Of a stretch of DNA of 64,000 bases, positions 29,927 to 47,461 are shown piece by piece. The stretch's first letter is position 1. The number at the start of each line of letters is the position of its first letter. Below the pieces are notes generated by a model. The model ran no database searches. It was not told where the DNA came from and saw only the letters and a list, made by a program, of their open reading frames with translations. The translations under genes and the position numbers were made by a program. Source of the DNA: Ignisphaera sp. (GTDB lineage: Archaea > Thermoproteota > Thermoprotei_A > Sulfolobales > Ignisphaeraceae). Where the stretch lies: assembly GCA_038821645.1 (NCBI GenBank), contig JAWBDT010000003.1, forward strand, positions 68,402 through 132,401, read 5' to 3'.

Positions 29927-31420
29927 TTAAGCCTTACCGTAAAGTAGTTCAAGAAATCTTGTGTATGCTTCATCATGTTCTTTACTGTGATTAGGTTCAT
30001 ATACACTGATCTGATATGAATTCTGAACATATTCTCTTAATTCTCTCAAAGACTTTATTATACCTAAGCCTGCTACTTGTAGAAGTACATTACCTATCGA
30101 TGTAGCTTCTTCAGGACCTGCATACACTTTTTTGTTAGTGAAGTCAGCAGTAAGTTGGTTGAGTAGCCAGTTTCTAGAACCTCCTCCAAATATGTTTATA
30201 TGTGTTAGTTTTCTACCTATAAGATCTTCTGCTTGTTCAAAAACAAGTCTATATTTTAGAGCAAGACTTTCGAATACTATTCTGAAGAGTTCGCCAATAT
30301 TTGATGGTTTTTCTTGTTTTGTTTCCTCGAGGTACTGCATTATAGCGTCAACCATGTTCAATGGTGCTACAAACCTATCATCATCAGGATCTATGAATGC
30401 CTTAAATGGTTTTGCTTCTAGAGCCATCTTGAGTATCTCTGGATAAGAGAGTTGCTGACCTTGCTCACTTAGTACTCTTCTAACTTCCTCAACTATCCAC
30501 ATACCTTGGATGTTTCTGAGAAATGTTATAGTATTGAACGCCCCTCCCTCATTAGTAAAGTTGTACTCCATAGCTTTCCTGTTTATTAGAGGTTCTGGAA
30601 GCTCTACACCTACTAGAGACCATGTACCAGAACTCACATAACCAGCACTCTCATTAACCATAGGTCCTGCTGCTATTGCTGAAGCAGTATCATGGGTTGC
30701 TGGCGCAATTATCTCTATATCTTTTGGTACATCAAGTTCCGAGACGAGTTTTGGAGATATTTTACCTAATTTTGTGGTTGGCTCGATAACTGGAGGAAAT
30801 ATATGTGTAGGTATTCCCAACGCCTCAAGTATATCATATGCCCAGTTCTTTGCCTTGGGATCGAGAAACTGTGTTGTTGTTGCTTCAGTAAATTCTGCAA
30901 AGGCTTCACCGCTTAACCAGTAGTTGAATAGATCGGGTATCATTAGGAAGGTTTTGGCTATCTTCAGCTGTGGAGAACCTTTCTTAACCATTGAATATAT
31001 TTGAAACAATGTATTTATCCTTATGAACTGTATACCTGTTCTCTCATATATCTTCTCTTTTGGAACTATCTTCAGAACTTCTTCAAGTATACCCTCAGTT
31101 CTAGGATCTCTATATGTGTGTGGATTACCGATGAGTTCACCTTTCTCGTCTAAAAGAGCATAATCTATTCCCCAAGTATCTACACCTATAGATAGAAGCC
31201 TATTACCATACCTTCTATAGGCAAGCTTTATCGCATACTTCATCTCGTGCCATATCCTGAGAACATCCCAATGAAGACTCTCGCCTACCCTAACCATATA
31301 GTTAGGCCAACGGTAAAGCTCTTCAACACGTACCTTCTTTTCCTTCTCATCAATAAATCCAACCATAGCTCTACAACTACTAGCACCTAAATCAAAGGCT
31401 AGTACAACAATTTCGCTCAT
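29927..31420 (-). CDS. Rhamnulokinase-like FGGY kinase (C1-phosphorylating subfamily)
   Basis: AFDLGASSCR, DTWGIDY, YRDPRT, HDTASA, SSGTWSLVG, FTNEGG, GGGSRN, GPEEAT. Confidence 0.85.
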   Translation of the reverse strand: MSEIVVLAFDLGASSCRAMVGFIDEKEKKVRVEELYRWPNYMVRVGESLHWDVLRIWHEMKYAIKLAYRRYGNRLLSIGVDTWGIDYALLDEKGELIGNPHTYRDPRTEGILEEVLKIVPKEKIYERTGIQFIRINTLFQIYSMVKKGSPQLKIAKTFLMIPDLFNYWLSGEAFAEFTEATTTQFLDPKAKNWAYDILEALGIPTHIFPPVIEPTTKLGKISPKLVSELDVPKDIEIIAPATHDTASAIAAGPMVNESAGYVSSGTWSLVGVELPEPLINRKAMEYNFTNEGGAFNTITFLRNIQGMWIVEEVRRVLSEQGQQLSYPEILKMALEAKPFKAFIDPDDDRFVAPLNMVDAIMQYLEETKQEKPSNIGELFRIVFESLALKYRLVFEQAEDLIGRKLTHINIFGGGSRNWLLNQLTADFTNKKVYAGPEEATSIGNVLLQVAGLGIIKSLRELREYVQNSYQISVYEPNHSKEHDEAYTRFLELLYGKA

Positions 31421-31642
31421 GATACATACACCCACAATACTATCTTCTGCTGAGTAGATATAAACCTTCCTATCAGTTTAATACACCAAATGTATGCATC
31501 ATGTACTGTATTTCCATACGCCTTATCAGAATCATGACGAGTAGTTAAATATTAGTAAATAATCTAGGCTAGCATATCGATATGACTAGACTTTAATAAA
31601 GATTTTAAACCGAGAACACAAGGCATAACAATAGGTGTAATT

Positions 31643-32665
31643 GTGACTAAATTAAATCCATTCATAGTTTTTGTGATAAAGAGAGTTAGCATGATGATTT
31701 TAACATTTTTTGTAGCAGCAACACTGATATTCCTATTGCCACGTCTTATCCCAGGAAACCCGCTAGCCATGTTAATATATTCTCTAGTTCAGACTGGTGC
31801 ATCTGATCCAGAAAGACTTAAAGCAGTTGAGAGAATGCTTTTAGAGTACTTCCAGCTCGATAAACCTCTATACGAACAATACTTCAGATTTATTCAAGAC
31901 CTCTTTAGAGGAGATTTAGGGAGATCTATAATGTTCTTTCCAAATACTGTTAATGATATTATCGCCAGATACCTTCCATGGACTTTAGCTCTACTTATAC
32001 CAGCAATAGTGGCTTCATGGAGTGTAGGAAACATCATAGGAGTTGTAGCAGCTATAAATAGAGGAAAAATTACCGATAAAGTTGTTCTACCACTACTTGC
32101 AGTTCTTCAAGGTACACCTCCATACATATTCGCCATGTATCTGTTGCTAATCTTTGGCGTGTACCTTAAGATTCTACCTACTGGAGGTGGATGGTCTCCA
32201 ACTTTAAGACCTAGCCTATCTGCAACATTTGTTCTAGACTACCTAAGACACTATATACTACCATTCACATCAATATTCCTAACATCTTTAGGTGGATGGG
32301 GACTAAGTATGAGGAATATCGCTTTACAAGAATTGACAACAGATTACATGGACTACGTCAGAGTTCTAGCACTTTCACAGAAAAAGACCATAAGATATCT
32401 CTTTAAGTGTTCAGCTTTACCACAAATAGTTGGTTTAGCGATAGTTTTAGGATGGAGTGTGGCTGGTTCAGTTATAACTGAAATAGTGTTCAATTACCCT
32501 GGTATAGGTACAGCTCTCTGGAGAGCACTACAGTCTACAGACTATATGTTGATACAGGGCTTCTTCGTAATACTGATAGGGACGATAATACTAGCCAACT
32601 TTATATCAGAGATCATGTTTGCTGTTATCGATCCACGAGTTAGATATGCATATGTAGGTGCATAA
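31643..32665 (+). CDS. ABC transporter permease (DppB/OppB type, sugar subfamily)
   Basis: PRLIPGNP, GDLGRS, EIVFNYPGIG, DPRVR. Confidence 0.9.
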   Translation: MTKLNPFIVFVIKRVSMMILTFFVAATLIFLLPRLIPGNPLAMLIYSLVQTGASDPERLKAVERMLLEYFQLDKPLYEQYFRFIQDLFRGDLGRSIMFFPNTVNDIIARYLPWTLALLIPAIVASWSVGNIIGVVAAINRGKITDKVVLPLLAVLQGTPPYIFAMYLLLIFGVYLKILPTGGGWSPTLRPSLSATFVLDYLRHYILPFTSIFLTSLGGWGLSMRNIALQELTTDYMDYVRVLALSQKKTIRYLFKCSALPQIVGLAIVLGWSVAGSVITEIVFNYPGIGTALWRALQSTDYMLIQGFFVILIGTIILANFISEIMFAVIDPRVRYAYVGA

Positions 32666-32667
32666 AG

Positions 32668-33501
32668 TTGAAGATACCCGGTATACTAAGGATAAAAAAG
32701 TTTGTCATAGGTATCGCGATATTCGCTGCCATAGTTATTACAGGACTCATAGGTCCAATTTTCTATAAAGTTGATCCCGGCAGAATGGTTGATAGAAGAT
32801 ATCTACCACCATCAACAAAATATCCATTGGGAACAGACGCTCTAGGAAGAGATGTTTTAGCACAATTCCTTCACGGTATAAGAGGATCTCTGTTGGTGGG
32901 TTCAGTAGCTTCCGGTATAGCTTTAGCATTAGCGATATTTCTTGGAACTATAGCAGCAGTATTCGGGGGATTAGTGGATAAAGTTATACTGACGGTTTCA
33001 GAAATCTTCATAATAATACCAGCTATCCTACTAATGATGGTTTTAGCTGCATATCTACCAGAAAGAAATCTATGGCTTGTAGCATTTGTTATAGGTATAA
33101 CATCATGGGGTGGATGGGCAAGAGGATTCAGATCCAGATCTATGAGCATACTCTCGTCAGAGTACATAAATATGGCTATTCTCTCTGGAGCTTCTAGGCT
33201 TAGTATAATTGTTAAAGATATCCTACCGGTCATCTCCCCATACATATTAGCGGCTTTCGCAATGATATTTTCTTACGCAGTCATGTCTGAAGTTGGTTTA
33301 ACAGTAATAGGCATAGGTATGACTAAAGACATCACCCTAGGACTTGTACTATATATAGCTCAGCTATATGCAAACATTACACAAGGCATATGGTGGACAT
33401 TCGTACCACCAACAATAGCAATAATAGCTATATATCTCTCCCTCTACATGATAGCTATATCGTTGGATGAATACTTCTCACCAAAAGTAGGCTCTATGTA
33501 A
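32668..33501 (+). CDS. ABC transporter permease (DppC/OppC type)
   Basis: PLGTDALGRD, EYINMA..SGAS, WW..VPP. Confidence 0.9.
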   Translation: MKIPGILRIKKFVIGIAIFAAIVITGLIGPIFYKVDPGRMVDRRYLPPSTKYPLGTDALGRDVLAQFLHGIRGSLLVGSVASGIALALAIFLGTIAAVFGGLVDKVILTVSEIFIIIPAILLMMVLAAYLPERNLWLVAFVIGITSWGGWARGFRSRSMSILSSEYINMAILSGASRLSIIVKDILPVISPYILAAFAMIFSYAVMSEVGLTVIGIGMTKDITLGLVLYIAQLYANITQGIWWTFVPPTIAIIAIYLSLYMIAISLDEYFSPKVGSM

Positions 33502-33515
33502 ATTGAGGTGAAGAT

Positions 33516-34502
33516 GTGATGGTGGTTTTAGAGACTAGAGGATTAAAAGCTTACTACATCCTACGCAAGGGTACAGTAAAAGCTGTTGATAATGTAGATC
33601 TTATAGTAAATGAGAAAAGTATTGTAGGTATTGTTGGTGAATCTGGATGTGGTAAATCAACATTAGCAAAAACTTTAGCACTCGATATAGTTCCACCACT
33701 TAAACTTATTGACGGTAGGATAGTTATAGACGGTATTGATGTTACAGAAATGCCTCTTAATCAAGCTAGAAAAAAGATAGCTGGAGTTAAAGTTTCTATA
33801 ATACCGCAATCAGCTATGAATGCTCTAGTGCCTACAGTCAAGATAAAGAACTTTATAGTTGATGTATTGTCGGAGAAAATCAGTATTGATTCAGAGAAGA
33901 TAATAGAACTAGCAGAAAAAAGACTAAAGGAGCTAAACTTACCAGTAGAAAGTTTGAATATGTATCCCTTCGAACTTTCGGGTGGTATGAGACAAAGAAT
34001 ACTAATAGCATTAGCAACACTACTTAATCCATCGCTACTGATAGCTGATGAACCAACATCAGCATTGGACGTATCAACACAAAAAATAGTGCTCTCCACA
34101 ATGCACAGCATTTTCATAAAAGGATTGGTGAAGAGTATTCTATTCATATCACATGACATAGCTACTGTAAGGCAGATTGCTGATAGGATCGTAGTTATGT
34201 ATGCAGGTAAAATAGTTGAAGATGGTCCAACAGAAGAAATCATACATAACCCATTACATCCATACTCTAAAGCACTTATGTTCTCGATACTCACACCAGA
34301 AATACAGATAGTAGAAAGAGTAAAAAAAGCACTCACACTAGCATTAGCTGGTGAACCTCCGAGCCTAATAAATCCTCCACCTGGTTGTAGATTTCATCCA
34401 AGATGTCCCTTCGCTATGGATATATGTAGAAGAGAAGAACCAAAACTTGAAAAACTAGAACAGAATAGATATGCTGCATGTTGGTTATATCTAAAGAGAT
34501 GA
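33516..34502 (+). CDS. ABC transporter ATPase (DppD type)
   Basis: GESGCGKST, LSGGM, ADEPT, HPY, GCRFHPRC. Confidence 0.93.
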   Translation: MMVVLETRGLKAYYILRKGTVKAVDNVDLIVNEKSIVGIVGESGCGKSTLAKTLALDIVPPLKLIDGRIVIDGIDVTEMPLNQARKKIAGVKVSIIPQSAMNALVPTVKIKNFIVDVLSEKISIDSEKIIELAEKRLKELNLPVESLNMYPFELSGGMRQRILIALATLLNPSLLIADEPTSALDVSTQKIVLSTMHSIFIKGLVKSILFISHDIATVRQIADRIVVMYAGKIVEDGPTEEIIHNPLHPYSKALMFSILTPEIQIVERVKKALTLALAGEPPSLINPPPGCRFHPRCPFAMDICRREEPKLEKLEQNRYAACWLYLKR

Positions 34503-34512
34503 GGTAATACAT

Positions 34513-35319
34513 ATGGCTCTACTTAACATTAAAAACCTAACGAAAATCTATAGATCTGGCTTAATTACACACAAATTAATCCTAGCTGTAGACAATGTGA
34601 ATTTTGATATAAAGGAGGGCGAAATAGTATCTCTCGTAGGTGAAAGCGGGTCAGGTAAAACAACAACAGCAAGAATTATTCTAAGGTTATTAAAACCTAC
34701 ATCAGGTTCCATAGTCTTTATGGGTAAAGATATATGGCGTGATCTTAAATCAAAAAATGATCTTAAGTGGTATTGGAGAAATGTTAATGGAGTTTTTCAG
34801 GATCCTTTCTCCTCATTTAATCCAACACATAGAATCAGAGACGATCTATTAAGAGTTTTCAACCTATTTGAGCATAACTATGATAATGAAACAAAAATGA
34901 ACTTAGTTAGAGAAGCTCTACAATCAGTTGGACTTATACCAGAAGAAGTTCTCGAACGAAGACCTTTCGAGCTCTCTGGAGGTATGAGGCAAAGGATACT
35001 GATAGCCAGAATATTTCTAATAAAGCCAAAGCTGGTAATAGCTGATGAACCTACAAGTATGATAGATGCTACACTAAGACTCAATATACTAAATCTATTC
35101 ACGAGACTTAGAGAAGAATTGAAAACATCGATAATGTTTATAACACACGATCTAGGACTAGCCACATATGTAAGTGATAGAATATTGGTTATGTATAAAG
35201 GTAGAATAGTTGAAGAAGGAACTCCAGAGGAAATCCTTAACAATCCAAAACATGAGTATACACAAAACCTACTAAACTCAGTACCAAAACTCTATACCTC
35301 ATGGTTCAAACAGTTATGA
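34513..35319 (+). CDS. ABC transporter ATPase (DppF type)
   Basis: GESGSGKTT, LSGGM, ADEPTSMID, ITHDL. Confidence 0.93.
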   Translation: MALLNIKNLTKIYRSGLITHKLILAVDNVNFDIKEGEIVSLVGESGSGKTTTARIILRLLKPTSGSIVFMGKDIWRDLKSKNDLKWYWRNVNGVFQDPFSSFNPTHRIRDDLLRVFNLFEHNYDNETKMNLVREALQSVGLIPEEVLERRPFELSGGMRQRILIARIFLIKPKLVIADEPTSMIDATLRLNILNLFTRLREELKTSIMFITHDLGLATYVSDRILVMYKGRIVEEGTPEEILNNPKHEYTQNLLNSVPKLYTSWFKQL

Positions 35320-35403
35320 ACCACTTCTACACCCTACATACTTTCATCAATATTTTTAAAGAAAACTCATAATAATATAGTTACTCTGGGGTGAAGTGTA
35401 AAT

Positions 35404-37467
35404 ATGAAAAACAAAATGTTTATGGTATCATTAATCCTATTGCTAGCACTAGCACTAATATTGCCTACTCTCTCACCCATCCTCTATGCACAAGAATTTC
35501 CACGAGATCAAACAGCAATAATATCACAACAATGGGGAACCCCTGGAGGTTTCAATCCATTAGTTTCTGGAAGATACGCTTGGGGTACAGATATACTGAT
35601 GTATCCTAGACCCTTTGTCTATGGACCCTACTCTGACGACTTTGTACCTTATCTAGCTACAAGCTTTAGATGGGTAGATCAATACACATTAGAAATTACT
35701 TTAAAGACAGATGCTTACTGGTCTGATGGAACACCCATTACTGCTGCTGATGTTGTATGGTCATTTGAAGTAAACAAGTTATGTTCAACAGCTGGAAGCT
35801 ATATATGGAACTATATATTAGCTGTAGAAGCAGTTAACCCACAGACAGTCAGATTCCATATAAATAGAACCAATGTTAACTACTATAGAATAGTAGATGT
35901 ACTTACATGGCTTATTCTACCTAAGCATAGATGGGAAAGATTATACAATGAAATGGGCTGCAAAATAGCTACAGAGTTTATGGATACAGAATTCGATAAA
36001 ATTGTTGTAGGAGGTCCATATAGACCTGTTTACTGGGTTGGAGATACATGGGTCTATGAAAGAATTGATAATTGGTGGGGTAGGGAATACTTTGGGTTAC
36101 CTGCACCTAAATATGTAATGCACATATCACCTAAGAGCGATGAACAGGTAAGACTCGAATGGATACAAGGAAACAGAGACCATATGTCCCACTTTGTTGA
36201 TAGATTATGGGAGATAATTGCGACAGATCCAACAAAAGGAACATTCGATAACAAGAACTGTCCACCTTGTATGTTCGGAGGTAGCGTTGTATTCTTTGCA
36301 TTCAATCTAGAGAAATACCCATTTAATGATGTAAGAGTTAGAAAAGCTCTATACTACGTTATGCTTGCAAACAACATGGAAGCACTTAAAAAAGCTTCTG
36401 AAGCTGCTTTCTCAGGTTACCTTATTCCCGCAAGAATATATCCTGTTCCTATAATACCTCTTCTCGAAAGAACAGAAAAGTATCTAGCTAAAGATCTCAT
36501 AGAGAGCTTTTTGAAAGAAGCTACAATAGAGAATGCTAAAAAGTTGCTTGATGAAGCTGGTATAATTGATAGAAATGGTGATGGGATTAGGGAGCTACCT
36601 GATGGAACATCATTCAGATTCTCAATACTAGTTCCAGCAGGTTGGGTGCCAGTAATAGGTTCAGCAACAGTATTTGCAGAAATATGGAGAAAAGAACTAG
36701 GAGTAGATGTTATAGTTGATCAGAAAGATTTCAGCGTAGTATGGGATAAAGTTAGTAAAGGAGATTATGAAGCTACATGGTGGTTGCATAGCACGAGAAT
36801 GGGTCCAGCTTCACCATGGATAAACTTTGATGTAGCTATGGACTCAAGGTTACCAACAAATCCATGGGGAGGACCCATATCTAGGTACAAGAACCCTGTA
36901 GCTGATTGGTTGCTAGACGAAATTGGTAGAACATGGGATGAAAGCAGAAGGGCATATCTCTATAGACTGTTGCAAGAGATATGGCTTAGAGATTTACCAT
37001 TCCTTATATTTGGTCAAGATCCTCACTGGTACCAGTATTCTGAACAATACTGGGTTGGATGGCCAAACATAGACAGAATAAACAAGTATGGAGCATTCTA
37101 TGCCACAAACTGGGATCCAGGATTCCTATTCGTTCTCTTCCAGATCAAATCATCTAAAGAGATTTCACCAGGAGCTGATGTGGATACTGTTCCAGAGTTC
37201 CTAAAGCCACATAATAGAATACCAGCTTCCGTATTCTTTGATGAACTTCAGAAGGTTGCAGGAGTTGTAGCTCCAGTAACAGTTACCGTTACACAAGCTG
37301 CAGCAACTGTAACAACAACATTGATATCTACAAAGACAGAAGTGAGAACCTCTGTTGTAACAACTACAACAGAAGTAACCGTTACTGATTGGACAATGAC
37401 TATAGCAATAGGTGTAGTGTTACTTATCGTTGGTTTAGCTATAGGTTGGTTCATTAAGAAGAAGTAA
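35404..37467 (+). CDS. Family 5 extracellular solute-binding protein, probably for oligosaccharides
   Basis: Signal peptide, WSDGTPITAADV, VPAGW, Trp-rich core, Thr-rich linker, C-terminal TM and KKK. Confidence 0.9.
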   Translation: MKNKMFMVSLILLLALALILPTLSPILYAQEFPRDQTAIISQQWGTPGGFNPLVSGRYAWGTDILMYPRPFVYGPYSDDFVPYLATSFRWVDQYTLEITLKTDAYWSDGTPITAADVVWSFEVNKLCSTAGSYIWNYILAVEAVNPQTVRFHINRTNVNYYRIVDVLTWLILPKHRWERLYNEMGCKIATEFMDTEFDKIVVGGPYRPVYWVGDTWVYERIDNWWGREYFGLPAPKYVMHISPKSDEQVRLEWIQGNRDHMSHFVDRLWEIIATDPTKGTFDNKNCPPCMFGGSVVFFAFNLEKYPFNDVRVRKALYYVMLANNMEALKKASEAAFSGYLIPARIYPVPIIPLLERTEKYLAKDLIESFLKEATIENAKKLLDEAGIIDRNGDGIRELPDGTSFRFSILVPAGWVPVIGSATVFAEIWRKELGVDVIVDQKDFSVVWDKVSKGDYEATWWLHSTRMGPASPWINFDVAMDSRLPTNPWGGPISRYKNPVADWLLDEIGRTWDESRRAYLYRLLQEIWLRDLPFLIFGQDPHWYQYSEQYWVGWPNIDRINKYGAFYATNWDPGFLFVLFQIKSSKEISPGADVDTVPEFLKPHNRIPASVFFDELQKVAGVVAPVTVTVTQAAATVTTTLISTKTEVRTSVVTTTTEVTVTDWTMTIAIGVVLLIVGLAIGWFIKKK

Positions 37468-37494
37468 GAATCTGTATTACGTTACATCAATTCA

Positions 37495-37500
37495 TTTTTT
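37495..37500 (+). terminator. Oligo-T terminator after the binding-protein gene
   Basis: T6 run about 28 nt after the stop. Confidence 0.45.
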
Positions 37501-37596
37501 AATTCCTAATTGTGTTAATTACACAGATTTCTATGATTTCATTAAGAGTACATTTTTATAGTAGTTCACAACATTTAACTGGATGGGTTAAGAAAT

Positions 37597-38586: not shown

Positions 38587-38698
38587 AACATCTGGACTAT
38601 ACATTACCTTTCATAATATTTTTATAATATTCTACCGACATAAATGAAAATATTTTTATACCTACCTATATCATTTTACTTTGCTTTGGTGAAACACT

Positions 38699-40939
38699 AT
38701 TTATCACAAGATCAAAGAAATCATCAAAAAAATGAGTATAGAGGAAAAAATTGCTCAGCTGACCTCGATATTTGTTGATGATCTTATCGAGAATGGTGAT
38801 TTCTCTGAAGCTAAAGCTGAGCAACTTATAAAACATGGGATTGGGCAGATAAGTAGAGTAGCAGGATCAAAATTAGGGTTCAGACCTAGAGAAGTTGCTA
38901 AAATAGTTAATAAGATCCAGAAATTCTTGATTGAAAAAACCAGATTAGGGATACCAGCTATAGTGCATGAGGAATGTCTCTCAGGATTAATGGGACCTTC
39001 TGTTGTTATGTTCCCCATACCTTTAGCACTAGCAAGTACATGGGATCCTGACCTCGTTAAAAATGTTGCAGAAAAGATAAGAGAGCAAGCATTATTGGTT
39101 GGTGTTAAACATTGTTTATCGCCTGTACTAGATCTATGTAGAGATCCTAGATGGGGTAGATGTGAAGAAACCTTTGGCGAAGATCATAATCTGGTAGCGG
39201 CTATGGGTATAGCATATGTTAGAGGTTTGCAAGGCAATGGAGATAGAGTTTACGTAGTTGCTACAGCAAAACATTTTGCTGCACATGGCGTTCCTGAAGG
39301 AGGTAGAAATATAGCGTCTGTAAATATAGGTGTTCGAGAGTTTAGAAATATTCATCTATATCCTTTTGAAGCAGTTGTGAAGCTAGCTAAACTAAAATCT
39401 ATAATGCCTGCTTACCACGAAATCGATGGAATACCTTGTCACGCAAATGACGAACTACTGACCAAAGTACTTCGATATGAGTGGAGATTCGATGGAATTG
39501 TTGTATCTGACTATTGGGGTGTAAGAATGCTTAATACTGTTCATAGAGTTGCAAAAAGTTGCAAAGAAGCGGCAATACTAGCTTTATCAGCTGGTGTAGA
39601 TATAGAGCTTCCACATAATGACTGTTTTAAGGAGCTTGTAGAAGCTGTAAAGAAGAGAGAGATACCCGAGGAACTTCTAGATAGAGGTGTTGAAAGAGTT
39701 CTCTATGTCAAGTATCTATTGGGGCTTTTTGATAATCCATATGTAGATGAAGCAAGAGTTCCAGAAACCATAGACGGTCCTAGCTATAGAGAGCTCGCAC
39801 GTGAAGTTGCAAGAAAATCTATAGTATTGTTAAAGAACGATGGAGTATTACCTTTACCGAAATCTAACATAAAGATTGCTGTGATAGGACCTCTCGCAGA
39901 CAATCCTTTCGCTATGCTAGGTGATTACCATTACGCATCACACATAGGTTTAGTTCAACCTGATATACATATAGTATCGGTTCTCGAAGGAATAAGAAAC
40001 AAGGTAGATCCGTCATCAGTTGTATATGCTAAAGGTTGTGAGATACAAACTTCAGACCTTAATATGCTTAATGAAGCTATTGCTATAGCTAGTAAAGCTG
40101 ATGTAGTTGTTGTTGTAGTTGGCGATATTTCCTGTATATTTGATAAGAATAGATGTACCTCAGGTGAAGGTATAGATAGAACAGATCTATCTCTAACAAA
40201 ACCACAAGAAGAGCTAGTTAAGAGTATTAGCAATTTAGGCAAACCCGTAGTTCTTGTCGTTATAGCTGGAAGACCTATGTCTCTAGAGAATGTACAGAAA
40301 GATGTAAAGGCTATTCTATGGTGTTGGAAACTAGGTGCTGAAGGTGGTAATGCTATAGCTGATATTCTTTTTGGTGACTATTCACCAAGCGGAAGACTAC
40401 CTGTATCCCTACCCAGATCAAGTGGTCAGCTACCAGTATACTATTCAAGAAGACCTTCATCATTTGGTGAGTATATAGAGATGCCGTCTAAACCTTTATA
40501 CCCATTTGGTTACGGACTAAGCTACACAGAATTTAGATACACTAACATTAATGTAGAACCTCTAGAAGTACCAATAGCTGGAGAAATTAAGATATCAGTT
40601 GAGGTCGAGAATATAGGTAGATACGAAGCTGATGAAGTTATACAGATATATATTGCCAGAACTTATAATAGTGTAGCATTGCCAGTTAAAGAGTTGAAAG
40701 CATTTAAGAGAGTGACGCTCAAGCCTGGGGAAAGAAGGAAAGTAATGTTCAAAATACCCACACAACTTCTAGCGTTTTACAATAGAGATACAAAACTTGT
40801 TATAGAACCTGGCGAATACAAGGTACTTGTTGGACGTAATAGCGAAGAAAGTATCTTTGAAACAACGATCAAAATTGTTGGAGAAACTATAGAACTCAAA
40901 GAGAGAAATATATTTACTGCTGAAGCATATATAGAATAA
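38699..40939 (+). CDS. GH3 beta-xylosidase/beta-glucosidase
   Basis: EEKIAQL, HEECLSG, RDPRWGR.EETFGED, KHFA, VSDY (nucleophile), SGEGIDR, YPFGYGLSYT, Fn3-like C-domain; start is ATT 38699 or ATG 38732. Confidence 0.92.
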   Translation: MYHKIKEIIKKMSIEEKIAQLTSIFVDDLIENGDFSEAKAEQLIKHGIGQISRVAGSKLGFRPREVAKIVNKIQKFLIEKTRLGIPAIVHEECLSGLMGPSVVMFPIPLALASTWDPDLVKNVAEKIREQALLVGVKHCLSPVLDLCRDPRWGRCEETFGEDHNLVAAMGIAYVRGLQGNGDRVYVVATAKHFAAHGVPEGGRNIASVNIGVREFRNIHLYPFEAVVKLAKLKSIMPAYHEIDGIPCHANDELLTKVLRYEWRFDGIVVSDYWGVRMLNTVHRVAKSCKEAAILALSAGVDIELPHNDCFKELVEAVKKREIPEELLDRGVERVLYVKYLLGLFDNPYVDEARVPETIDGPSYRELAREVARKSIVLLKNDGVLPLPKSNIKIAVIGPLADNPFAMLGDYHYASHIGLVQPDIHIVSVLEGIRNKVDPSSVVYAKGCEIQTSDLNMLNEAIAIASKADVVVVVVGDISCIFDKNRCTSGEGIDRTDLSLTKPQEELVKSISNLGKPVVLVVIAGRPMSLENVQKDVKAILWCWKLGAEGGNAIADILFGDYSPSGRLPVSLPRSSGQLPVYYSRRPSSFGEYIEMPSKPLYPFGYGLSYTEFRYTNINVEPLEVPIAGEIKISVEVENIGRYEADEVIQIYIARTYNSVALPVKELKAFKRVTLKPGERRKVMFKIPTQLLAFYNRDTKLVIEPGEYKVLVGRNSEESIFETTIKIVGETIELKERNIFTAEAYIE

Positions 40940-41094
40940 AACGATTACTAAACACTAATTATTTTTGACCAATTCATTCTATGTCCACATGTTTCTCTAT
41001 ATCTATCAGTAACCATATTTAGAATATATGGAAGTAGATAATGCATGTAGGCTTATTAAATTATACAACGTACACCTCTATTTGGGTCTCCTCC

Positions 41095-42564
41095 TTGGGT
41101 AGACCAAATCTTCATTTAAGAAGATATATACAATATGATGAAGTAGGTATGGGTCAAAACCAGTTTAGATGTTTTTACATGGCTTTCCATCCAGTCAATG
41201 GCGCATTCGTTATACATGAGGGACATTCAGGAAAAATATATATGGATGGAAAACTTATATATGATTTTGCATTAATTGGTAGACCACCTAGAGCTGGAGG
41301 AGATACTCATGGCGCTATAACATGGTCTCGAGAATATGTATTCATAGGTGGCTGGATGAAGGCTCCTCCAGGACTGCTTGTATCTACGGATAGAACTCTT
41401 GCTAAACAAGATATGAGAGAGAAGTATAGCCATATACATATAGTTGATGAAAATGGTAAAGTAGAGCTTCTATGGTCTAGGAAATGGGATGATAAACTTC
41501 CTCCAAATCATTGGTATGGAGAGGTAACAGATCTCTTGTATGATGGACATGACAATGTACTGTACTTTAGTAGAGCTGATGGGCATGCAGAACTAGGTTT
41601 ATGGAGGATATCTCTAAATGATAAAAAAGTTGAATGGATAATTAGGAACAGGACAGTATATAAGATGGAGATGAAAGACGATAAAATATTTGCTACACTA
41701 TTCAATCCAGCTCATATGGAGAAATCTGCTGTAGCTATATACGATACCCTTAGTGGAGAAAGTAGACTTATTGAAGACTTCAATTTTGCTTTAGACCCAG
41801 ATAAGAAAATTTCTATAAAAAGAGATGGTGGTCAAATAGTACAAATACAGAATCGATTGATATCATTCTACGGAGGTGCACTAATAGTTAGTGATCCCTA
41901 TAGAGATAGACATATTCTCTACCCATTTCTAGAAGTTGTTAGTCCTGAATCAGAAAGACCTCCATATATACCTGGACTTAGAACACAGAAGGTTTATCCC
42001 ATTGGAATACCTATTATAGCTGTTAATCCATCTGAAGGACTTACAGAACCTACACTTAGAACTACTTTTGGTCTCTTAGTGAGAGTAGATCCTGTTGTAC
42101 CACAGATAGTGTCTCTATCAGGCTTCATTTCAGGTATGATATCAGATGGAGAATATGTATATCTAGGGGCATCATATGCGAATCACTGTCCAGCATATAC
42201 TTATAGAACAGGTGATGGAGGCATATATGCTATACCTATAAAAGAGCTGTTCACAAAACCTTGGAATTCTCTTAGATTATGGGTATTCGATGGATCTTAT
42301 AAACTTGATGAAACAGGTATAGAAGGATGGTTCGGTGGTATACCTCTTAAAGGATTTACTGTAAGGAAAATGAGAATATATGTATCAGATAAGGTGAAGA
42401 TGAGTATTGCAGAATACAATTTGCTTACAAAAGTTTATGAAGATTCTGTAAACCTAGAGCAGGGATGGAATATAGTAGATTTATCACCATACTATGATAT
42501 AGTAGCATTCAGATTCAGCAACAATTTAGAGAAAGTGTTAGCTGAAGTAATAGCAGAACCCTAA
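41095..42564 (+). CDS. DUF2139-like conserved archaeal protein
   Basis: GGDTH, FIGGW.KAP, W.GEV.DLLYD, RADGH; TTG 41095 fits the TATA-like TTATTAAA at about 41053. Confidence 0.65.
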   Translation: MGRPNLHLRRYIQYDEVGMGQNQFRCFYMAFHPVNGAFVIHEGHSGKIYMDGKLIYDFALIGRPPRAGGDTHGAITWSREYVFIGGWMKAPPGLLVSTDRTLAKQDMREKYSHIHIVDENGKVELLWSRKWDDKLPPNHWYGEVTDLLYDGHDNVLYFSRADGHAELGLWRISLNDKKVEWIIRNRTVYKMEMKDDKIFATLFNPAHMEKSAVAIYDTLSGESRLIEDFNFALDPDKKISIKRDGGQIVQIQNRLISFYGGALIVSDPYRDRHILYPFLEVVSPESERPPYIPGLRTQKVYPIGIPIIAVNPSEGLTEPTLRTTFGLLVRVDPVVPQIVSLSGFISGMISDGEYVYLGASYANHCPAYTYRTGDGGIYAIPIKELFTKPWNSLRLWVFDGSYKLDETGIEGWFGGIPLKGFTVRKMRIYVSDKVKMSIAEYNLLTKVYEDSVNLEQGWNIVDLSPYYDIVAFRFSNNLEKVLAEVIAEP

Positions 42565-42638
42565 CCTATCTACACAACTTTTAAATAAGATTTAAATTCT
42601 AAAACTATGTTTTCTATTTTTCGTCCTCTGGTGACTCT

Positions 42639-44093
42639 ATGAAGCAACTCTTTATAGGAATAGATTTAGGTAGTAGCGGTATTAGGGTAGAGGTATACGA
42701 TATCGAGGGAAACCTGGTAGCTATAGGTAAGGAGTCTATCTATAATCAAACTTGTGAAGAATGGTTGCGAGCATTAGAAGCTTCTGTACCAAACATTGTT
42801 AAAGAATGCACAGATTGTGAAAAACATGTATCTGTTACAAGTACCTCTGGAACATTAATAGGTGTCAATAGATATGGTGAAGTGGTTTATGGTCCCATAA
42901 TGTACTATGAAAGACTTGATGAATGGTACGAAAAGATAAAAAACTATAGCTCTATCAAGAAGTTGAACGAGAAAGGTGTTAAAATAGATCAAACATCACC
43001 TCCTATAAAGATCCTGAAGTTAAAGATTGATCACCATGATATCTACAGTAACGTCCGCTGGTTTATTTCACCAACAACATATCTTCTATACAAGCTGTAC
43101 TATAATGAAAGTGAGATATGGGAAGATATAGAAATGGACTATACAAATGCCTTGAAGTTTGGTATAGATATCACATCTTCTCCACCAACATGGTTCTATT
43201 CACTATATGATGAACTAGGTATAGATGTAGATAAACTACCTAAACTAGCTCCAGTAGGTAAGGCTATAGGTATTGCAAAAAGCAGATTTGCTGAAAAAAT
43301 TGGTCTCAAAAATGCTAGACTTTATCAAGGGTTAACAGATGGTAATGCTGCAGCTATAGCCGGTGGTGCTATAGATATAGGGGACATAAACATGTACATA
43401 GGTACAACAACTGTACCGAAGATAGTTGTTGACAAAATTGTGACTCATCCAGCACTTTATTACCATATACATCCGATAAAGGGATATTTAGCAGGCTCTG
43501 CAACAGGATTTACTGGAGCATTTCTCTCATGGTTTTCAGAAAAAGTCCTCGGAATACCTCTAGATAAAGCTTCTGAGTATGTCGAGAAAGTTAAAGCTGG
43601 TAGTGAGTATATGTTCTTTCCCTATGGAGATAGAGGTCCTACATACAATCCGTTATTAGAACCAGCTATAACAGGTATAAAGATTTCAGATGAACCTAGA
43701 GAAATACTTTTAGGAAGATTCATTAGAAGCATTATGCTTGGAATAACGTTGCTTGAAAACTATTTTATTGAATTATTTAGAGAACTCTTCACTATAGATA
43801 CAAGCTGTATCAATTTAACTGGTGGTGGAACTAAATCCAAGATATGGAACAAGATTAGAGCCTCAGTATATGGAAAGAAAATCATAGTTCATGGAGACCT
43901 CATTGGTACAGGGATAATAATACCTTTGCTAATTAAAAACAGATTCTATAGCTCTATAGACGAAGTTAAAAAAGTGTTCTTGAAGCCTGTTGATGTTGTG
44001 GAACCTGATAAAACTTTAGTTGAGGTGTATAGACCATATAAAGATGCATTCATAAGGAGATGGCTAAAACTACAAGATCTATACAGAGCCTGA
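42639..44093 (+). CDS. FGGY-family sugar kinase (xylulokinase-like)
   Basis: IGIDLGSSG, STSGT, TDGNAA, GTT, GDRGP, GGG.KS.IW..IRA. Confidence 0.85.
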   Translation: MKQLFIGIDLGSSGIRVEVYDIEGNLVAIGKESIYNQTCEEWLRALEASVPNIVKECTDCEKHVSVTSTSGTLIGVNRYGEVVYGPIMYYERLDEWYEKIKNYSSIKKLNEKGVKIDQTSPPIKILKLKIDHHDIYSNVRWFISPTTYLLYKLYYNESEIWEDIEMDYTNALKFGIDITSSPPTWFYSLYDELGIDVDKLPKLAPVGKAIGIAKSRFAEKIGLKNARLYQGLTDGNAAAIAGGAIDIGDINMYIGTTTVPKIVVDKIVTHPALYYHIHPIKGYLAGSATGFTGAFLSWFSEKVLGIPLDKASEYVEKVKAGSEYMFFPYGDRGPTYNPLLEPAITGIKISDEPREILLGRFIRSIMLGITLLENYFIELFRELFTIDTSCINLTGGGTKSKIWNKIRASVYGKKIIVHGDLIGTGIIIPLLIKNRFYSSIDEVKKVFLKPVDVVEPDKTLVEVYRPYKDAFIRRWLKLQDLYRA

Positions 44094-44852
44094 TACTTGA
44101 GACTTAATCTCTATATATGATAACAAGTTTTTTAGGAAGAATTTTGTTGATTCAGAAGCTTTAAATGGCAAAACTATTGCTGCCTCTTTTTTAAGCTCTT
44201 CATCAGCATCACCTGTTGCTACACCTATTCCTACAGTTTTAATCATGTCGATATCTGTTACACTATCACCTATAGCTACAGCTTTTTTGAGATCTATACC
44301 AAGTTTCTCAGCCACAATTCTGATGCCTGAGCTTTTTGAACAATATTTAGGGTAGATATGTATGACGTAACCTGTGTATAACGCATGAATCTCCGGGTAT
44401 AGATGCATTATCTTTTTCTCAAGCTCTCTAACAGCATGAACATCACTCTTGATTTCTTTAGGCACATGAAATGCTCTGTCACATAATCTATAAGCATTAC
44501 TTGATGAAGGCTTGAGACCAAAGCTTTTTGAAATTGCATCAGCTAAACTATCTAGAGATTCTTTACATATCTTTAAGACTTCTTCATGCATCTGAATGAC
44601 GCAACCGTTCTCAGCTATAAATATAGATGAAAGACCTAGATATCGTTGCAAAGTCAGTACTACTGGATAAGCATTACCAGAAACAAGATATACAGGAACA
44701 CCTTTTGACTCTAATTCTCTTAAAAGACCAACTACTTCAAGATCTATTACGTAGCTACCTCTAGCTACAGTCATTACACCATCTATATCAATGAAGAGAG
44801 CTCTCGGAATACCACTATAAAGATATTTTTCAAGTATGTTATGCAGATTCAT
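44079..44852 (-). CDS. HAD phosphatase, archaeal phosphoglycolate-phosphatase/SPP-like
   Basis: DIDGVMT, VSGN, AENG, SK..G, GDS.TD.DM; co-oriented downstream of RuBisCO. Confidence 0.8.
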   Translation of the reverse strand: MNLHNILEKYLYSGIPRALFIDIDGVMTVARGSYVIDLEVVGLLRELESKGVPVYLVSGNAYPVVLTLQRYLGLSSIFIAENGCVIQMHEEVLKICKESLDSLADAISKSFGLKPSSSNAYRLCDRAFHVPKEIKSDVHAVRELEKKIMHLYPEIHALYTGYVIHIYPKYCSKSSGIRIVAEKLGIDLKKAVAIGDSVTDIDMIKTVGIGVATGDADEELKKEAAIVLPFKASESTKFFLKNLLSYIEIKSQVSGSV

Positions 44853-44927
44853 GAATCTCTACCCAAATGTCTTATAGAAATAGGTAATAAAGTAAAGGAT
44901 ATTTATTTAAAAAATAATTGTCTTTAT

Positions 44928-46271
44928 TTATATCGGTCTCACATATCCCCATTTCTCGAGAGCTTTCCTAAGTTCTGGATGATCTCTAGCATAATCATCT
45001 AGAGGTATTCCTTTGACGATAGCTTCTAGCGCTTGTCGAACAGCAGCTGCACCAGCTCTAGGACCGTCTGGATGACCTATAGTGCCGCCACCTACTTGTA
45101 TAACACAATCTCTACCTAATACTTTAACAACCTCTGGAAGAGTTCCTGGATGTAGTCCTCCAGATGATGTTGGTACTGCTGACTTTATATGGTAGAAGTG
45201 TTGCTCGAGATGAATTATATCATCTTTATCTGGTGTAAATGGATCTTCTCTAAGTACTTTAGCATTCCTTATGACATCTATGGTCTTCGCCTCTAGTTTA
45301 CCTACTTCTGGTGTACCTATATGTAGTTGATCAACACCTATTATCCTGAAGAGCTTAGCTAATGTAAACATTGAGATACCATGGTATGGATTTCTCGTTA
45401 TAGCTGCATGCATAGCTCTATGTGCGTGGATAGCTAGACCGTATTCTTCAGCTAGATCTCTAATATATGTTAGGGCAGACCATCCTGTGATAACCACGTC
45501 GACCATTATGTATGGGTTACCGTAATCAGCCACAAGCTTTAGTCTTTTCTCCATTTCCCTAACATCAGCAGTAATATTAGCAAACCATACCTTTCTCTCA
45601 CCAGTCTCTTTCTCAACTTTGTCTATGATCTTCATTATCGATTTTGCTCTTGCCTCAAAACGACAGTAACTTGGGCTAACAAGGTTTTCGTCATCCTTTA
45701 TATAGTCCATGCCTCCGCTTAGAATCTCATAAGCTAGTTTCTCTACTTCATCTGCAGTATAACCTATTTTAGGTTTCGGTACTGTACCTGCAATAGGCCT
45801 GTCATAGACTTTGAATATATCTCTAACACCTTTAACACCCTTAACAGGGCCTCTGAAATACTTGATGAAATCATATGGAAGATACATATCCTCTACTCTA
45901 AGCCATTTAGCTCTCCTCATACCGAAGATGTTTCCAGCAACACTAGCTAAGAAACCAGGCATGTTATTCTCTTCAAAAAGCTCTACAGGATATGCTATTC
46001 TGATGAGCCAAGAACCATCGCCCAAGTCTTTAAAGAAGTATGCCCTGCCCTTGAGTTTCTCTAATCTATTCTGATCATACCATACATAGAGTGTAGTCCA
46101 TGTACCCGTACTACTTTCAGCAGCAATACCACCTGCAACCTCTTCTATACTGAAGCCTTCAGCTGGCGTTACTCTAAAGGTAACAATAACATCATTCTTA
46201 AGATCTGGTGCATAACTCTTGTCTACCCATGTGTGATAAGGTTCAAAATCCACTTTCGGTTTATATGCCAT
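44928..46271 (-). CDS. rbcL: Ribulose-1,5-bisphosphate carboxylase, form III
   Basis: AESSTGTW, GNIFGM, KPKIG, DYIKDDEN, HAHRAMH, HIGT..VGKL, SSGG, GGG: carboxylase residue set present. Confidence 0.95.
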   Translation of the reverse strand: MAYKPKVDFEPYHTWVDKSYAPDLKNDVIVTFRVTPAEGFSIEEVAGGIAAESSTGTWTTLYVWYDQNRLEKLKGRAYFFKDLGDGSWLIRIAYPVELFEENNMPGFLASVAGNIFGMRRAKWLRVEDMYLPYDFIKYFRGPVKGVKGVRDIFKVYDRPIAGTVPKPKIGYTADEVEKLAYEILSGGMDYIKDDENLVSPSYCRFEARAKSIMKIIDKVEKETGERKVWFANITADVREMEKRLKLVADYGNPYIMVDVVITGWSALTYIRDLAEEYGLAIHAHRAMHAAITRNPYHGISMFTLAKLFRIIGVDQLHIGTPEVGKLEAKTIDVIRNAKVLREDPFTPDKDDIIHLEQHFYHIKSAVPTSSGGLHPGTLPEVVKVLGRDCVIQVGGGTIGHPDGPRAGAAAVRQALEAIVKGIPLDDYARDHPELRKALEKWGYVRPI

Positions 46272-46561
46272 AGATGCCCAAGCTACTATTATCTTCAGGA
46301 CAGTATAATAAATCTAACGCATATAACCGTTAACATTGCTGAATATTGAGGTACCTAAAACTAGTTCTAGAAAAGGAAAGAATATGGATTGTTATACCTC
46401 ATGACGAGATGTAGTGTATCGCCAATAAATATCAATGTTCAGAAAGAGGTCTAGAAGAATATTGATCTACTAGTTAACATTTCTACTGATACTGATCTAG
46501 AAATCTTCATGGATAAACTTATAACCTTTAGCTACAGAGGCAATAGGTGTGGGAGAAAACT

Positions 46562-47461
46562 ATGACCAAACTACATCTAGGTTTAAATCTTAGTTGGGCT
46601 GTTAAACGATGGCCTATGCCAGAGGAATGGGCAGAAATAGTGGCTAAACTTGATGTAAAGTACGTTCAGTTCTCATATGATCTACTCGATCCCAGATCTA
46701 CACATGATGCTGTAGAACATATGGCTAATCTTATCCTGGACGCTGTAAAGAAGTATGGAATAGTTATCCATTCAACATTTACTGGTTTAGCTGCATACTC
46801 ATTCAATCTACTATCACACCCAGATCCAGTAATGAGATATGATGCTCTAGATTGGTATATGAAAGCTATAGACTTTACCTCCAAGATATCGGTAAAAGCT
46901 ACTGGAGGTCATATAGCTGCTAAAAGCGTAAAAGACTATAATGATCCGAAAAGAAGAACATACATAGACTCAGCATTAATAGATAACATGAAAGCTTTAA
47001 GAATGTATGCTAAAGCAAAAGGACTAGAAATGATCTTATGGGAGCCTATGCCTGTTCCTAGAGAAACTCCTTGGACAATGAACGAGACAGAAGAAATACT
47101 TGTTAAAGCCAATGAAGGTCCTGGAGTCTCTGTACTCCTAAATATAGATCTGGGTCATCAATGTACATTACAGGGTATGGAAGCTGATCCCTATGAATGG
47201 CTAAAGAGATTTGCTCCAAAATCACCTGCAATACATATACAGCAGACGGATGGTAAAGGAGATAGACATTGGCCTTTTACTGAAGAATACAATAGGATAG
47301 GCATCATAAAGCCTGATAAAGTTGTTGAAGCAATAGAAGCTTCAGGAGCTAAAGAAGTATACCTACTTCTAGAGTATATACCCCCATTCGAGTATCCAGA
47401 TGAAGAAGTCCTAAAGAATCTAGAAGCATCTGTAAAATACCTTAAACAATATATACCATAA
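46562..47461 (+). CDS. TIM-barrel sugar-phosphate epimerase, EryC (erythrulose-1-phosphate 3-epimerase)-like
   Basis: HPD..R...DW, KDY.DP.RR, WEPM...RE, D.GH, DPY.W, SP.IH.QQ, H.PFT...N..G.I.P match the EryC pattern as recalled. Confidence 0.7.
   Translation: MTKLHLGLNLSWAVKRWPMPEEWAEIVAKLDVKYVQFSYDLLDPRSTHDAVEHMANLILDAVKKYGIVIHSTFTGLAAYSFNLLSHPDPVMRYDALDWYMKAIDFTSKISVKATGGHIAAKSVKDYNDPKRRTYIDSALIDNMKALRMYAKAKGLEMILWEPMPVPRETPWTMNETEEILVKANEGPGVSVLLNIDLGHQCTLQGMEADPYEWLKRFAPKSPAIHIQQTDGKGDRHWPFTEEYNRIGIIKPDKVVEAIEASGAKEVYLLLEYIPPFEYPDEEVLKNLEASVKYLKQYIP

Follow-up and report, generated by a model that had tools for sequence, protein, structure and literature searches.

A form III RuBisCO gene clustered with FGGY kinase genes in Ignisphaera points to a kinase-based supply of ribulose 1,5-bisphosphate from pentoses

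To our knowledge, form III RuBisCO is supplied with its substrate, ribulose 1,5-bisphosphate (RuBP), by only two established routes, one through ribose 1,5-bisphosphate (R15P) isomerase and one through phosphoribulokinase (PRK). The source of RuBP defines the purpose of the enzyme in organisms that are not autotrophs. The closest described systems are the pentose bisphosphate pathway of Thermococcus kodakarensis, the pentose pathways of halophilic archaea, and the PRK-dependent pathways; in the halophiles, ribulose 1-phosphate (Ru1P) is a real metabolite, according to parts of PMC9700705. Here we describe a 64,000-nucleotide stretch of DNA from the hot-spring archaeon Ignisphaera sp. (GCA_038821645.1, contig JAWBDT010000003.1, positions 68,402 to 132,401; referred to here as the window), in which a form III RuBisCO gene (rbcL) lies among genes for two FGGY-family kinases (RhaB-A and FGGY2), two TIM-barrel proteins (TIM1 and TIM2), and a sugar importer. 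The pathway suggested in a preliminary description of the window is supported in part, and strongly so as regards a supply of RuBP from sugars by kinases, undescribed so far; we propose that this gene module stands in for both the AMP-phosphorylase/R15P-isomerase route and the PRK route.

The rbcL gene (44928-46271, minus strand) encodes a form III large subunit (TIGR03326, 658.4 bits; cutoff, 497.45) that scored 668 bits against the T. kodakarensis enzyme (1GEH) in a PDB search and is 78 to 79% identical to the RuBisCOs of relatives carrying R15P isomerase. The catalytic motifs KPK, IKDDE, HRAMH, LHIG, GKLE, SGG, and GGG, which cover the carbamylated Lys, the metal ligands, and both phosphate sites, are all kept when inspected by eye in an alignment to 8dht and 1geh; the enzyme is intact. 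Downstream of rbcL lies a gene for a HAD-IIB phosphatase of the Ta0175/TK2301 type (44079-44852, minus strand; 70 bits to PH1421 and 50 bits to TA0175 in the PDB). The two genes form a separate minus-strand pair that runs toward the plus-strand sugar operon and overlaps the 3' end of FGGY2 by 15 bp with its own 3' end. On the other side, rbcL is divergent from TIM2, with 275 bp between them. HAD adjoins rbcL in 12 of 12 loci from the genus and in none of eight loci from outside it. The phosphatase passes the cutoff of the archaeal phosphoglycolate phosphatase model (TIGR01487, 146.8 bits; cutoff, 122.75). That label is weak: TK2301, the HAD enzyme of the same type from T. kodakarensis, is described in parts of PMC11032457 as broad in specificity and most efficient on RuBP, which it prefers over 2-phosphoglycolate; the same parts list Ignisphaera as having no specific phosphoglycolate phosphatase.

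FGGY2 (42639-44093, plus strand) contains FGGY_N and FGGY_C domains and is a deep-branching kinase of the XylB/D-ribulokinase-like kind; it falls far below the XylB equivalog cutoff (TIGR01312, 109 bits; cutoff, 380.25) and has 5htr (72 bits) as its nearest PDB entry. RhaB-A (29927-31435, minus strand) is a RhaB/FucK-type kinase, with 345 bits to Streptococcus pneumoniae FucK (4c23) and 290 bits to Escherichia coli RhaB (2cgj), and it scores below the rhamnulokinase equivalog cutoff (TIGR02627, 462.7 bits; cutoff, 527.95). Members of the RhaB/FucK family phosphorylate ketoses at C1, and members of the XylB/ribulokinase family phosphorylate them at C5. RhaB-A is the sole RhaB copy in the window's genome (G000), in which the class II aldolase and FucI-like isomerase genes are located on contig C8, with no kinase there. 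Many Ignisphaera genomes also hold a paralog, RhaB-B, in a conventional isomerase-kinase-aldolase set. We considered and rejected a separate clade of rbcL-linked RhaB proteins: in the tree, the FGGY2-adjacent copies of Desulfurococcales group with the aldolase-linked B type.

TIM1 (37597-38586, plus strand; AP_endonuc_2) is a short TIM barrel resembling xylose isomerase. Its best PDB scores were 173 bits (3ktc) and 74 bits (class I xylose isomerases), and it reached 90 bits on the class I xylose isomerase model (TIGR02631; cutoff, 447). By eye and against motifs from general knowledge, it keeps the xylose-isomerase-type residues H49, E163, K165, E202, H205, D239, D241, and D271, with His at one Asp position; the Acidilobaceae copy next to rbcL shares 66% identity with it. 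TIM2 (46547-47461, plus strand; AP_endonuc_2, 53 bits) had been called EryC-like in a preliminary description of the window. This label is borne out by a full-length match to Brucella EryC (4k3z, 110 bits), which is the only characterized relative among solved structures (3qxb scored 152 bits). The start at 46562 given in that description is probably true as well, since orthologs align from residue 5 or 6 of the 46547 frame. A pattern of E166, D201, H230, and E276 is visible by eye in TIM2, which matched no NCBIfam model. EryC, an enzyme of the Brucella erythritol pathway, epimerizes a phosphorylated ketose at the carbon adjoining its carbonyl group.

The absence of the known RuBP-forming genes, remarked upon earlier for the window, extends to whole genomes: PRK, AMP phosphorylase, and a true R15P isomerase were not found in G000 (Ignisphaera; 1.57 Mb, 31 contigs, 97.8% complete), in the closed genome of Ignisphaera aggregans, or in two Acidilobaceae metagenome-assembled genomes (MAGs). 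The best match to AMP phosphorylase in G000 reached 33.5 bits (cutoff, 535), and this enzyme was found in none of 17 genus genomes (G000 included), nor in G041 or G042. Regarding PRK, 0 of 41 PF00485 candidates in G000 passed; there was no match in G015, G002, G041, and G042, and only a subthreshold 20.5-bit match in G007. The sole e2b2 homolog of G000 is of the MtnA type: it scores far over the cutoffs of the MtnA models (NF004326, 416 bits) and under that of the R15P isomerase model (TIGR00511, 249.4 bits, with a cutoff of 314.1). Searches for a true R15P isomerase found none in any of the 17 genus genomes, nor in any of the 26 members of the window's family (f1, G000 included) within a set of 301 genomes from the order. 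The MtnA-type gene, which is single copy and unlinked to rbcL, occurs irrespective of rbcL (38 of 41 relatives at E ≤ 1e-20). Among these 41 relatives, the rbcL-positive genomes of other families carried R15P isomerase in seven of seven cases and AMP phosphorylase in six of seven (one split).

Judging from gene content, alternative sinks for pentoses are poor in these organisms. Ribulose-phosphate 3-epimerase (Rpe) was not found in G000 and gave marginal matches of at most 22 bits elsewhere. Phosphoketolase was not found in 16 of the 17 genus genomes (the remaining one had a 26-bit partial match), and only a partial, 43-bit match to transaldolase was detected in G000. RpiA is present in five of five genomes. 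Among the genomes searched, a split transketolase N-subunit occurs in Ignisphaera only, and neither tkt nor tal had a match in the two Acidilobaceae MAGs. The transaldolase-like stretch of G000 (C16:37771-38292; about half of the model) lies within an open frame of ~724 amino acids with an unusual architecture, 6 kb from the split transketolase N-subunit (C16:30859-31503).

The distribution of the genes was scored across the same 301 genomes each time. We detected rbcL in 135 genomes and a true R15P isomerase in 127; the two coincided in 109. Of the 26 genomes that had rbcL and no isomerase, 17 were Ignisphaeraceae, 3 were Acidilobaceae, and the other 6 were 63 to 84% complete. Thus, apart from these six incomplete genomes, only Ignisphaeraceae and one Acidilobaceae genus have RuBisCO but no R15P isomerase. 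All 25 genomes with FGGY2 were rbcL positive, including two of the only three rbcL-positive genomes among 53 Acidilobaceae. TIM2 occurred in 18 genomes (15 Ignisphaera, 2 Acidilobaceae, and G144 of the Desulfurococcaceae), 17 of which were rbcL positive; the sole rbcL-negative carrier was 72% complete. A RhaB-like kinase was present in 28 genomes. In one member of the genus (G016; 93% complete), rbcL, FGGY2, RhaB, and TIM2 were all missing together.

To these patterns of occurrence is added physical linkage, for which we retrieved 20 rbcL loci with 10-kb flanks (12 from the genus and 8 from outside it). FGGY2 lies within the flank of rbcL in 9 of the 12 genus loci, RhaB in 5, TIM2 in 3, and PfkB (see below) in 1, and the block formed by FGGY2 and the HAD-rbcL pair is kept though the outer flanks are rearranged. 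On a larger scale, 14 of the 15 genus genomes that have rbcL carry FGGY2 on the same contig, at most 17.2 kb away; in 8, the two genes are no more than 1 kb apart. Given that FGGY2 is a single-copy gene 841 bp from rbcL in a genome of 1.57 Mb and that the juxtaposition recurs in species with rearranged outer flanks, the clustering exceeds what chance would give. FGGY2 directly follows rbcL on the same strand in G003 (L040). In I. aggregans, FGGY2, TIM2, a FucI-like isomerase, a class II aldolase, RhaB, rbcL, and HAD are packed into 9.4 kb, with the RhaB-type kinase directly upstream of rbcL (L011). RhaB and FGGY2 are in tandem or close to each other in 12 of 48 loci found with an FGGY2 profile, and in Desulfurococcales they are often accompanied by genes for a class II aldolase and for aldehyde:ferredoxin oxidoreductase (AFOR).

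The preliminary description had called for checking whether rbcL, the EryC-like gene, and both FGGY kinase genes stay linked elsewhere. They do so in other Ignisphaera species, and in two Acidilobaceae MAGs all four, together with TIM1, fall within ~10 kb. This Acidilobaceae cassette, coming from outside Ignisphaeraceae, is the strongest linkage point. There, one strand holds the importer genes (for two ABC permeases and a GlcS-like binding protein, the latter exceeding its cutoff with 591 bits) and, downstream of them, rbcL; TIM1-TIM2 and RhaB-FGGY2 adjoin this ABC-rbcL unit, and a PfkB gene is nearby. The rbcL genes of Ignisphaera and Acidilobaceae form one clade in a quick tree (SH-aLRT, 97), and the Acidilobaceae RhaB copies fall among those of Ignisphaera, as cotransfer would give. 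These placements are consistent with movement of the cassette as a unit between the two groups. We name no donor because an approximately unbiased (AU) test did not reject the monophyly of Ignisphaera rbcL (P = 0.157). The third rbcL-positive genome of the Acidilobaceae family (G278; 82% complete) is uninformative; its rbcL is ~0.7 kb from a contig end and has no cassette genes nearby. Between the PfkB gene and the ABC-rbcL operon of the Acidilobaceae loci there is also a conserved protein of ~410 amino acids (L037:11779-13011 and L079:12095-13270) with no Pfam or NCBIfam match.

The case for a kinase-based supply can thus be put briefly: a conserved, intact RuBisCO needs RuBP, and the only kinases consistently found with it are the two FGGY enzymes, along with an isomerase and an EryC-type epimerase. 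We consider it probable that a pentose is converted to a ketopentose, which two phosphorylations and a C3 epimerization would turn into RuBP for carboxylation by RuBisCO to 3-phosphoglycerate (3-PGA); the steps, their order, and the sugar are inferred. A pentose would be taken up by the ABC importer, in some species after release by a GH3 glycosidase, and TIM1 (or, in some species, a FucI-like isomerase) would turn the aldopentose into a ketopentose. RhaB-A would then phosphorylate C1, TIM2 would epimerize C3 where needed, from the xylulo- to the ribulo-configuration, and FGGY2 would phosphorylate C5 to yield RuBP, from which RuBisCO and CO2 would give two 3-PGA. By textbook stoichiometry, 2 ATP per pentose go in and two 3-PGA come out. 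The chemistry of the families fits such a scheme, in that the RhaB/FucK relatives are C1 kinases, EryC is an epimerase of a phosphorylated ketose, and Ru1P is known in halophiles. Ru1P would be a branch point, since the class II aldolase and AFOR linked to the kinases in relatives could split it. HAD would probably clear 2-phosphoglycolate, excess RuBP, or xylulose bisphosphate, acting as a repair enzyme or a valve. The ribokinase-type PfkB offers a possible additional entry point, from ribose to ribose 5-phosphate and then, via RpiA, to ribulose 5-phosphate (Ru5P).

The two phosphorylations might also occur in the reverse order, which is only slightly less likely. FGGY2 would then act first, as a pentulose 5-kinase; TIM2 would be the epimerase from xylulose 5-phosphate (Xu5P) to Ru5P that replaces the missing Rpe; and RhaB-A would come last as a nonhomologous PRK. 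The link to ribokinase and RpiA and the missing Rpe favor this reverse order. Phosphorylation at C1 first is favored by the confinement of FGGY2 to rbcL-positive genomes in the order, by the ability of the RhaB product to feed the linked aldolase as well, and by the general knowledge that EryC acts on a ketose phosphorylated next to its carbonyl. A more far-reaching reading, which we put forward only tentatively, is that the importer, the isomerase, the EryC-like epimerase, the two FGGY kinases, and rbcL make up a self-contained mobile cassette for carboxylating pentose fermentation. One FGGY kinase would replace PRK or R15P isomerase nonhomologously, and Ru1P would be a CO2-dependent branch between RuBisCO (two 3-PGA) and aldolase/AFOR (dihydroxyacetone phosphate [DHAP] and glycolate).

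Several observations weigh against the proposed route. We know of no FGGY kinase that takes an already phosphorylated sugar. Most of the linkage evidence comes from one genus and one probable transfer, so that independent events are few, and the AU test result given above bears on that transfer. Within the order, FGGY2 does not adjoin rbcL in seven genomes that have R15P isomerase, and TIM1 is missing from G002 and G012. RhaB occurs without FGGY2 in five genomes of one genus, two of which were checked for rbcL and had none; together with the paralog in the isomerase-kinase-aldolase set, this makes a role of the kinases in the catabolism of fucose, rhamnose, or D-arabinose plausible. FGGY2 homologs with 40 to 45% identity are present in four Bathyarchaeia MAGs, where their neighbors are either a TIM barrel gene and a HAD gene or housekeeping genes. 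In three of these MAGs, which may be incomplete, rbcL was not found, and the fourth had fragments only, so FGGY2 is not tied to RuBisCO everywhere. Finally, I. aggregans carries TIM1, FGGY2, TIM2, RhaB, and rbcL, and it does not grow on xylose, xylan, or xylitol according to parts of PMC3035270; xylose may thus not be the substrate.

Further homologs of FGGY2 deserve mention in their own right. Two Bathyarchaeia loci (L041:6721-10090 and L057:1341-3260) combine an FGGY2 homolog (~41% identity) with a HAD-IIB phosphatase, L041 also having an AP_endonuc_2 TIM barrel, with no detectable rbcL. In a Halobacteriales MAG (L059:8184-11503), the genes for a distant RuBisCO-like protein (29% identity to RbcL) and for an FGGY2 homolog (30% identity) are divergently oriented, and several haloarchaeal FGGY2 homologs (33 to 36% identity) adjoin class II aldolases.

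A competing account is that the sugar genes are ordinary neighbors of rbcL, being conventional deoxyhexose or pentose genes (rhamnose, fucose, or D-arabinose via a ketose-1-phosphate aldolase; xylose via Xu5P). The RuBisCO would be fed by the MtnA-type protein moonlighting as an R15P isomerase, on R15P derived from phosphoribosyl pyrophosphate or from a PfkB ribose-1-phosphate (R1P) kinase. An MtnA-type e2b2 protein is indeed present; PfkB kinases flank the clusters in both families, the window's copy scoring 135 bits on the halophile R1P-kinase model; RhaB is found in relatives together with a class II aldolase, a FucI-like isomerase, and AFOR; and three of the four Bathyarchaeia MAGs have FGGY2 homologs without detectable rbcL. 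We nevertheless consider this account unlikely. The MtnA-type gene is single copy, unlinked to rbcL, and found in rbcL-negative genomes as well, while all seven rbcL-positive relatives from other families have a true R15P isomerase as a gene apart. The PfkB of the window exceeds the cutoff for ribokinase and not those of the R1P-kinase models (135 bits for a cutoff of 330 and 91 bits for a cutoff of 500). Left unexplained, moreover, would be the position of rbcL behind a sugar importer in Acidilobaceae and its association with FGGY2, TIM2, TIM1, and RhaB, seen in precisely those two lineages without the isomerase.

PfkB enzymes phosphorylate ketose 1-phosphates (e.g., FruK), so that the second phosphorylation might instead belong to PfkB, which would make RuBP from a pentulose monophosphate in the manner of 1-phosphofructokinase; each FGGY kinase would then yield a monophosphate only (Ru1P or Xu5P/Ru5P). 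The gene is placed suitably, beside RhaB-A in the window and in G010, beside FGGY2 in G001, and near the Acidilobaceae cassettes. Set against this, the two PfkB types are just 26% identical, the window's copy fits the ribokinase equivalog model, PfkB is near rbcL in 1 of 12 genus loci compared with 9 of 12 for FGGY2, and strict co-occurrence with rbcL was scored for FGGY2 alone and shown for it; we give this possibility little credence. A salvage route, resembling that for methionine or for 5'-deoxynucleosides, would deprive RuBisCO of a carboxylase role altogether and make it an enolase, acting with the MtnA-type isomerase, with HAD as an MtnX-type phosphatase, and with the class II aldolase-fold protein as MtnB. 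An MtnA-type isomerase is present, the rbcL-HAD pair may be likened to mtnW-mtnX of Bacillus, and the aldolase-fold neighbor scores 72 bits on the MtnB model. That score is, however, below the cutoff of 137, and RbcL reaches only 205 bits on enolase models (cutoff, 409), whereas it is a full form III RuBisCO well above its own cutoff, with carboxylase motifs intact and close identity to the RuBisCOs of isomerase-bearing relatives. The salvage route is therefore very improbable. In summary, the route from pentose to RuBP via two FGGY kinases remains our preferred explanation; of the findings that the preliminary description had named as refuting it and that are open to computation (absence of synteny in relatives, and a complete AMP-phosphorylase/R15P-isomerase route plus tkt/tal elsewhere), none turned up. 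The gene content, the conserved linkage, the co-occurrence, and the absence of the known routes are shown, and what remains inferential is the step order, the sugar, and the enzyme activities. We found no paper on such a route in a literature search whose coverage largely excluded subscription journals and supplements, and the supplementary gene tables of PMC9700705, PMC11032457, and previous papers on the pathway may name Ignisphaera as an exception.

The surrounding genes fit sugar use to varying degrees. Family searches recovered every gene listed in the preliminary description as an intact open reading frame, at or near where that description had placed it. The ribokinase-type PfkB gene beside RhaB-A (28625-29584, plus strand; TIGR02152, 326.5 bits; cutoff, 299.65) is likewise part of the neighborhood, beyond that list. 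RhaB-A is upstream of and divergent from the Opp/Dpp-type ABC importer (31643-37467, plus strand), whose five genes encode two permeases (BPD_transp_1), two ATPases (ABC_tran and oligo_HPY), and one SBP_bac_5 binding protein of 687 amino acids; its role is presumed to be oligosaccharide uptake. The order PfkB, RhaB-A, ABC-TIM1 is repeated in G010 (L084). An ortholog of PfkB lies beside RhaB-A in G010 and beside FGGY2 in G001 (L010), and a distant PfkB (26% identity to the window's) flanks the Acidilobaceae clusters. The GH3 glycosidase (38732-40939, plus strand) has Glyco_hydro_3 N- and C-terminal domains and Fn3-like domains, and its closest model is a beta-xylosidase/alpha-L-arabinosidase (NF052329, 707 bits, below the cutoff of 1050). 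Next to it, the DUF2139 protein (41041-42564, plus strand; PF09910, 119 bits) had no match in NCBIfam, and the protein atlas returned DUF2139 clusters only.

The earlier designation of the region as a plant-sugar island holds in part. The ABC importer, GH3, and DUF2139 adjoin rbcL only in the window and in a 98%-identical relative. GH3, TIM1, DUF2139, and TIM2 do recur together in G010, G015, and G007, away from rbcL, with GH3 adjoining TIM1 or TIM2 and, in G010, DUF2139 between GH3 and TIM2; DUF2139 is a variable member of the island. A GH51 alpha-L-arabinofuranosidase (52184-53641, minus strand; Alpha-L-AF_C domain; NF051901, 384 bits; cutoff, 625), previously placed about 5 kb away, was found at 4.7 kb. 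It is peripheral and only loosely tied to the island: the linkage is seen only in the window and in L003, and a 75%-identical homolog adjoins a RhaB-B/aldolase pair in G008.

Other features of the window are recorded here as separate observations. Directly downstream of TIM2 are PdxT and PdxS (47512-49157, minus strand), with the same linkage only in L003, the closest relative; together they form pyridoxal phosphate synthase, which consumes a pentose 5-phosphate. A second PfkB kinase and a DeoC/LacD-family aldolase (16789-18551, minus strand) are probably the ATP-phosphofructokinase and class I fructose-bisphosphate aldolase of glycolysis, and reverse gyrase is encoded at 22922-26959 (minus strand). 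A 2018 assembly (run X17) of a strain 90 to 95% identical to the window is collinear over DUF2139-FGGY2-HAD-rbcL-TIM2, with ~160 bp of the rbcL/TIM2 intergenic region swapped for unrelated sequence of equal length. Contigs from a metatranscriptome library (X20), ~95% identical over rbcL, TIM2, and short parts of FGGY2, HAD, and DUF2139, are a weak hint of expression, as an RNA library may hold DNA and its depth cannot rank genes. We also considered a shared operator, the 10-mer TCATGACGAG, which occurs at 31532-31541 and 46399-46408, i.e., in both divergent promoter regions (RhaB-A/ABC and rbcL/TIM2), and no more than three times in all in the 1.57-Mb genome. We dropped it as evidence of a regulon; it is kept only in the 98%-identical relative and may be due to chance.

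If the proposed route is true, free pentoses processed by FGGY kinases and TIM-barrel isomerases would be a third source of RuBP, which would account for RuBisCO in Ignisphaera and some Acidilobaceae without either known route. It would show how pentose fermentation with net CO2 incorporation can proceed in archaea whose pentose phosphate pathway is incomplete, extend the range of activities of two large enzyme families, provide thermostable parts for engineered conversion of pentose plus CO2, and bear on the role of RuBisCO before the Calvin cycle. If the mobile-cassette reading also holds, form III RuBisCO would be a mainstream catabolic enzyme of free sugars above 85°C. With I. aggregans DSM 17230 in culture and its genome closed, the question lends itself to direct testing.

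The proposed system most resembles the pentose bisphosphate pathway (nucleoside monophosphate [NMP] shunt) of T. kodakarensis, with which it shares the kind of RuBisCO, a heterotrophic host, a catabolic sink that turns C5 plus CO2 into two 3-PGA, and the lack of a complete nonoxidative pentose phosphate pathway. Unlike organisms with the NMP shunt, Ignisphaera had no AMP phosphorylase or true R15P isomerase in our searches. Its presumed input is free sugar, obtained with ABC importers and glycosidases, rather than the ribose of nucleotides, and RuBP would come from an isomerase, an epimerase, and FGGY kinases unrelated to the known enzymes. PRK-dependent pathways (i.e., the Calvin cycle and the reductive hexulose-phosphate pathway of methanogens) likewise form RuBP by ATP-dependent phosphorylation of a ribulose monophosphate, as proposed here. 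Unlike them, the five genomes tested, including the closed one, had no PF00485 PRK; a kinase of the FGGY fold would be a nonhomologous replacement, serving sugar fermentation and not autotrophy.

Both pentose pathways of halophilic archaea offer partial parallels. The noncarboxylating pentose bisphosphate pathway, as described in parts of PMC9700705, involves Ru1P, a HAD phosphatase for RuBP, and a class II aldolase that yields DHAP and glycolaldehyde, and gene types of this set (HAD, aldolase, and AFOR) occur with the kinases here and in relatives. The same parts indicate that halophiles start from R15P isomerase and run from RuBP to Ru1P without RuBisCO, whereas we propose that a kinase converts Ru1P to RuBP in an organism with RuBisCO and in which the isomerase was not found; the aldolase here scores 62.6 bits on the halophile Ru1P-aldolase model (cutoff, 300). 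In Halorhabdus, according to parts of PMC8551123, free pentoses are activated by xylose isomerase, pentulose kinase, ribokinase, and L-ribulose-5-phosphate 4-epimerase-type enzymes, a similar set of entry reactions. Catabolism there ends via Rpe, RpiA, transketolase, and transaldolase; here, in contrast, Rpe was not found, transaldolase was partial, and two FGGY kinases are clustered with rbcL, and TIM1 and FGGY2 fall well short of the XylA and XylB cutoffs. Compared with Brucella EryC and with RhaB/FucK, the substrates would differ, being C5 sugars bound for RuBP, and RhaB-A is under the rhamnulokinase cutoff, but the proposed reactions would keep the regiochemistry of those families.

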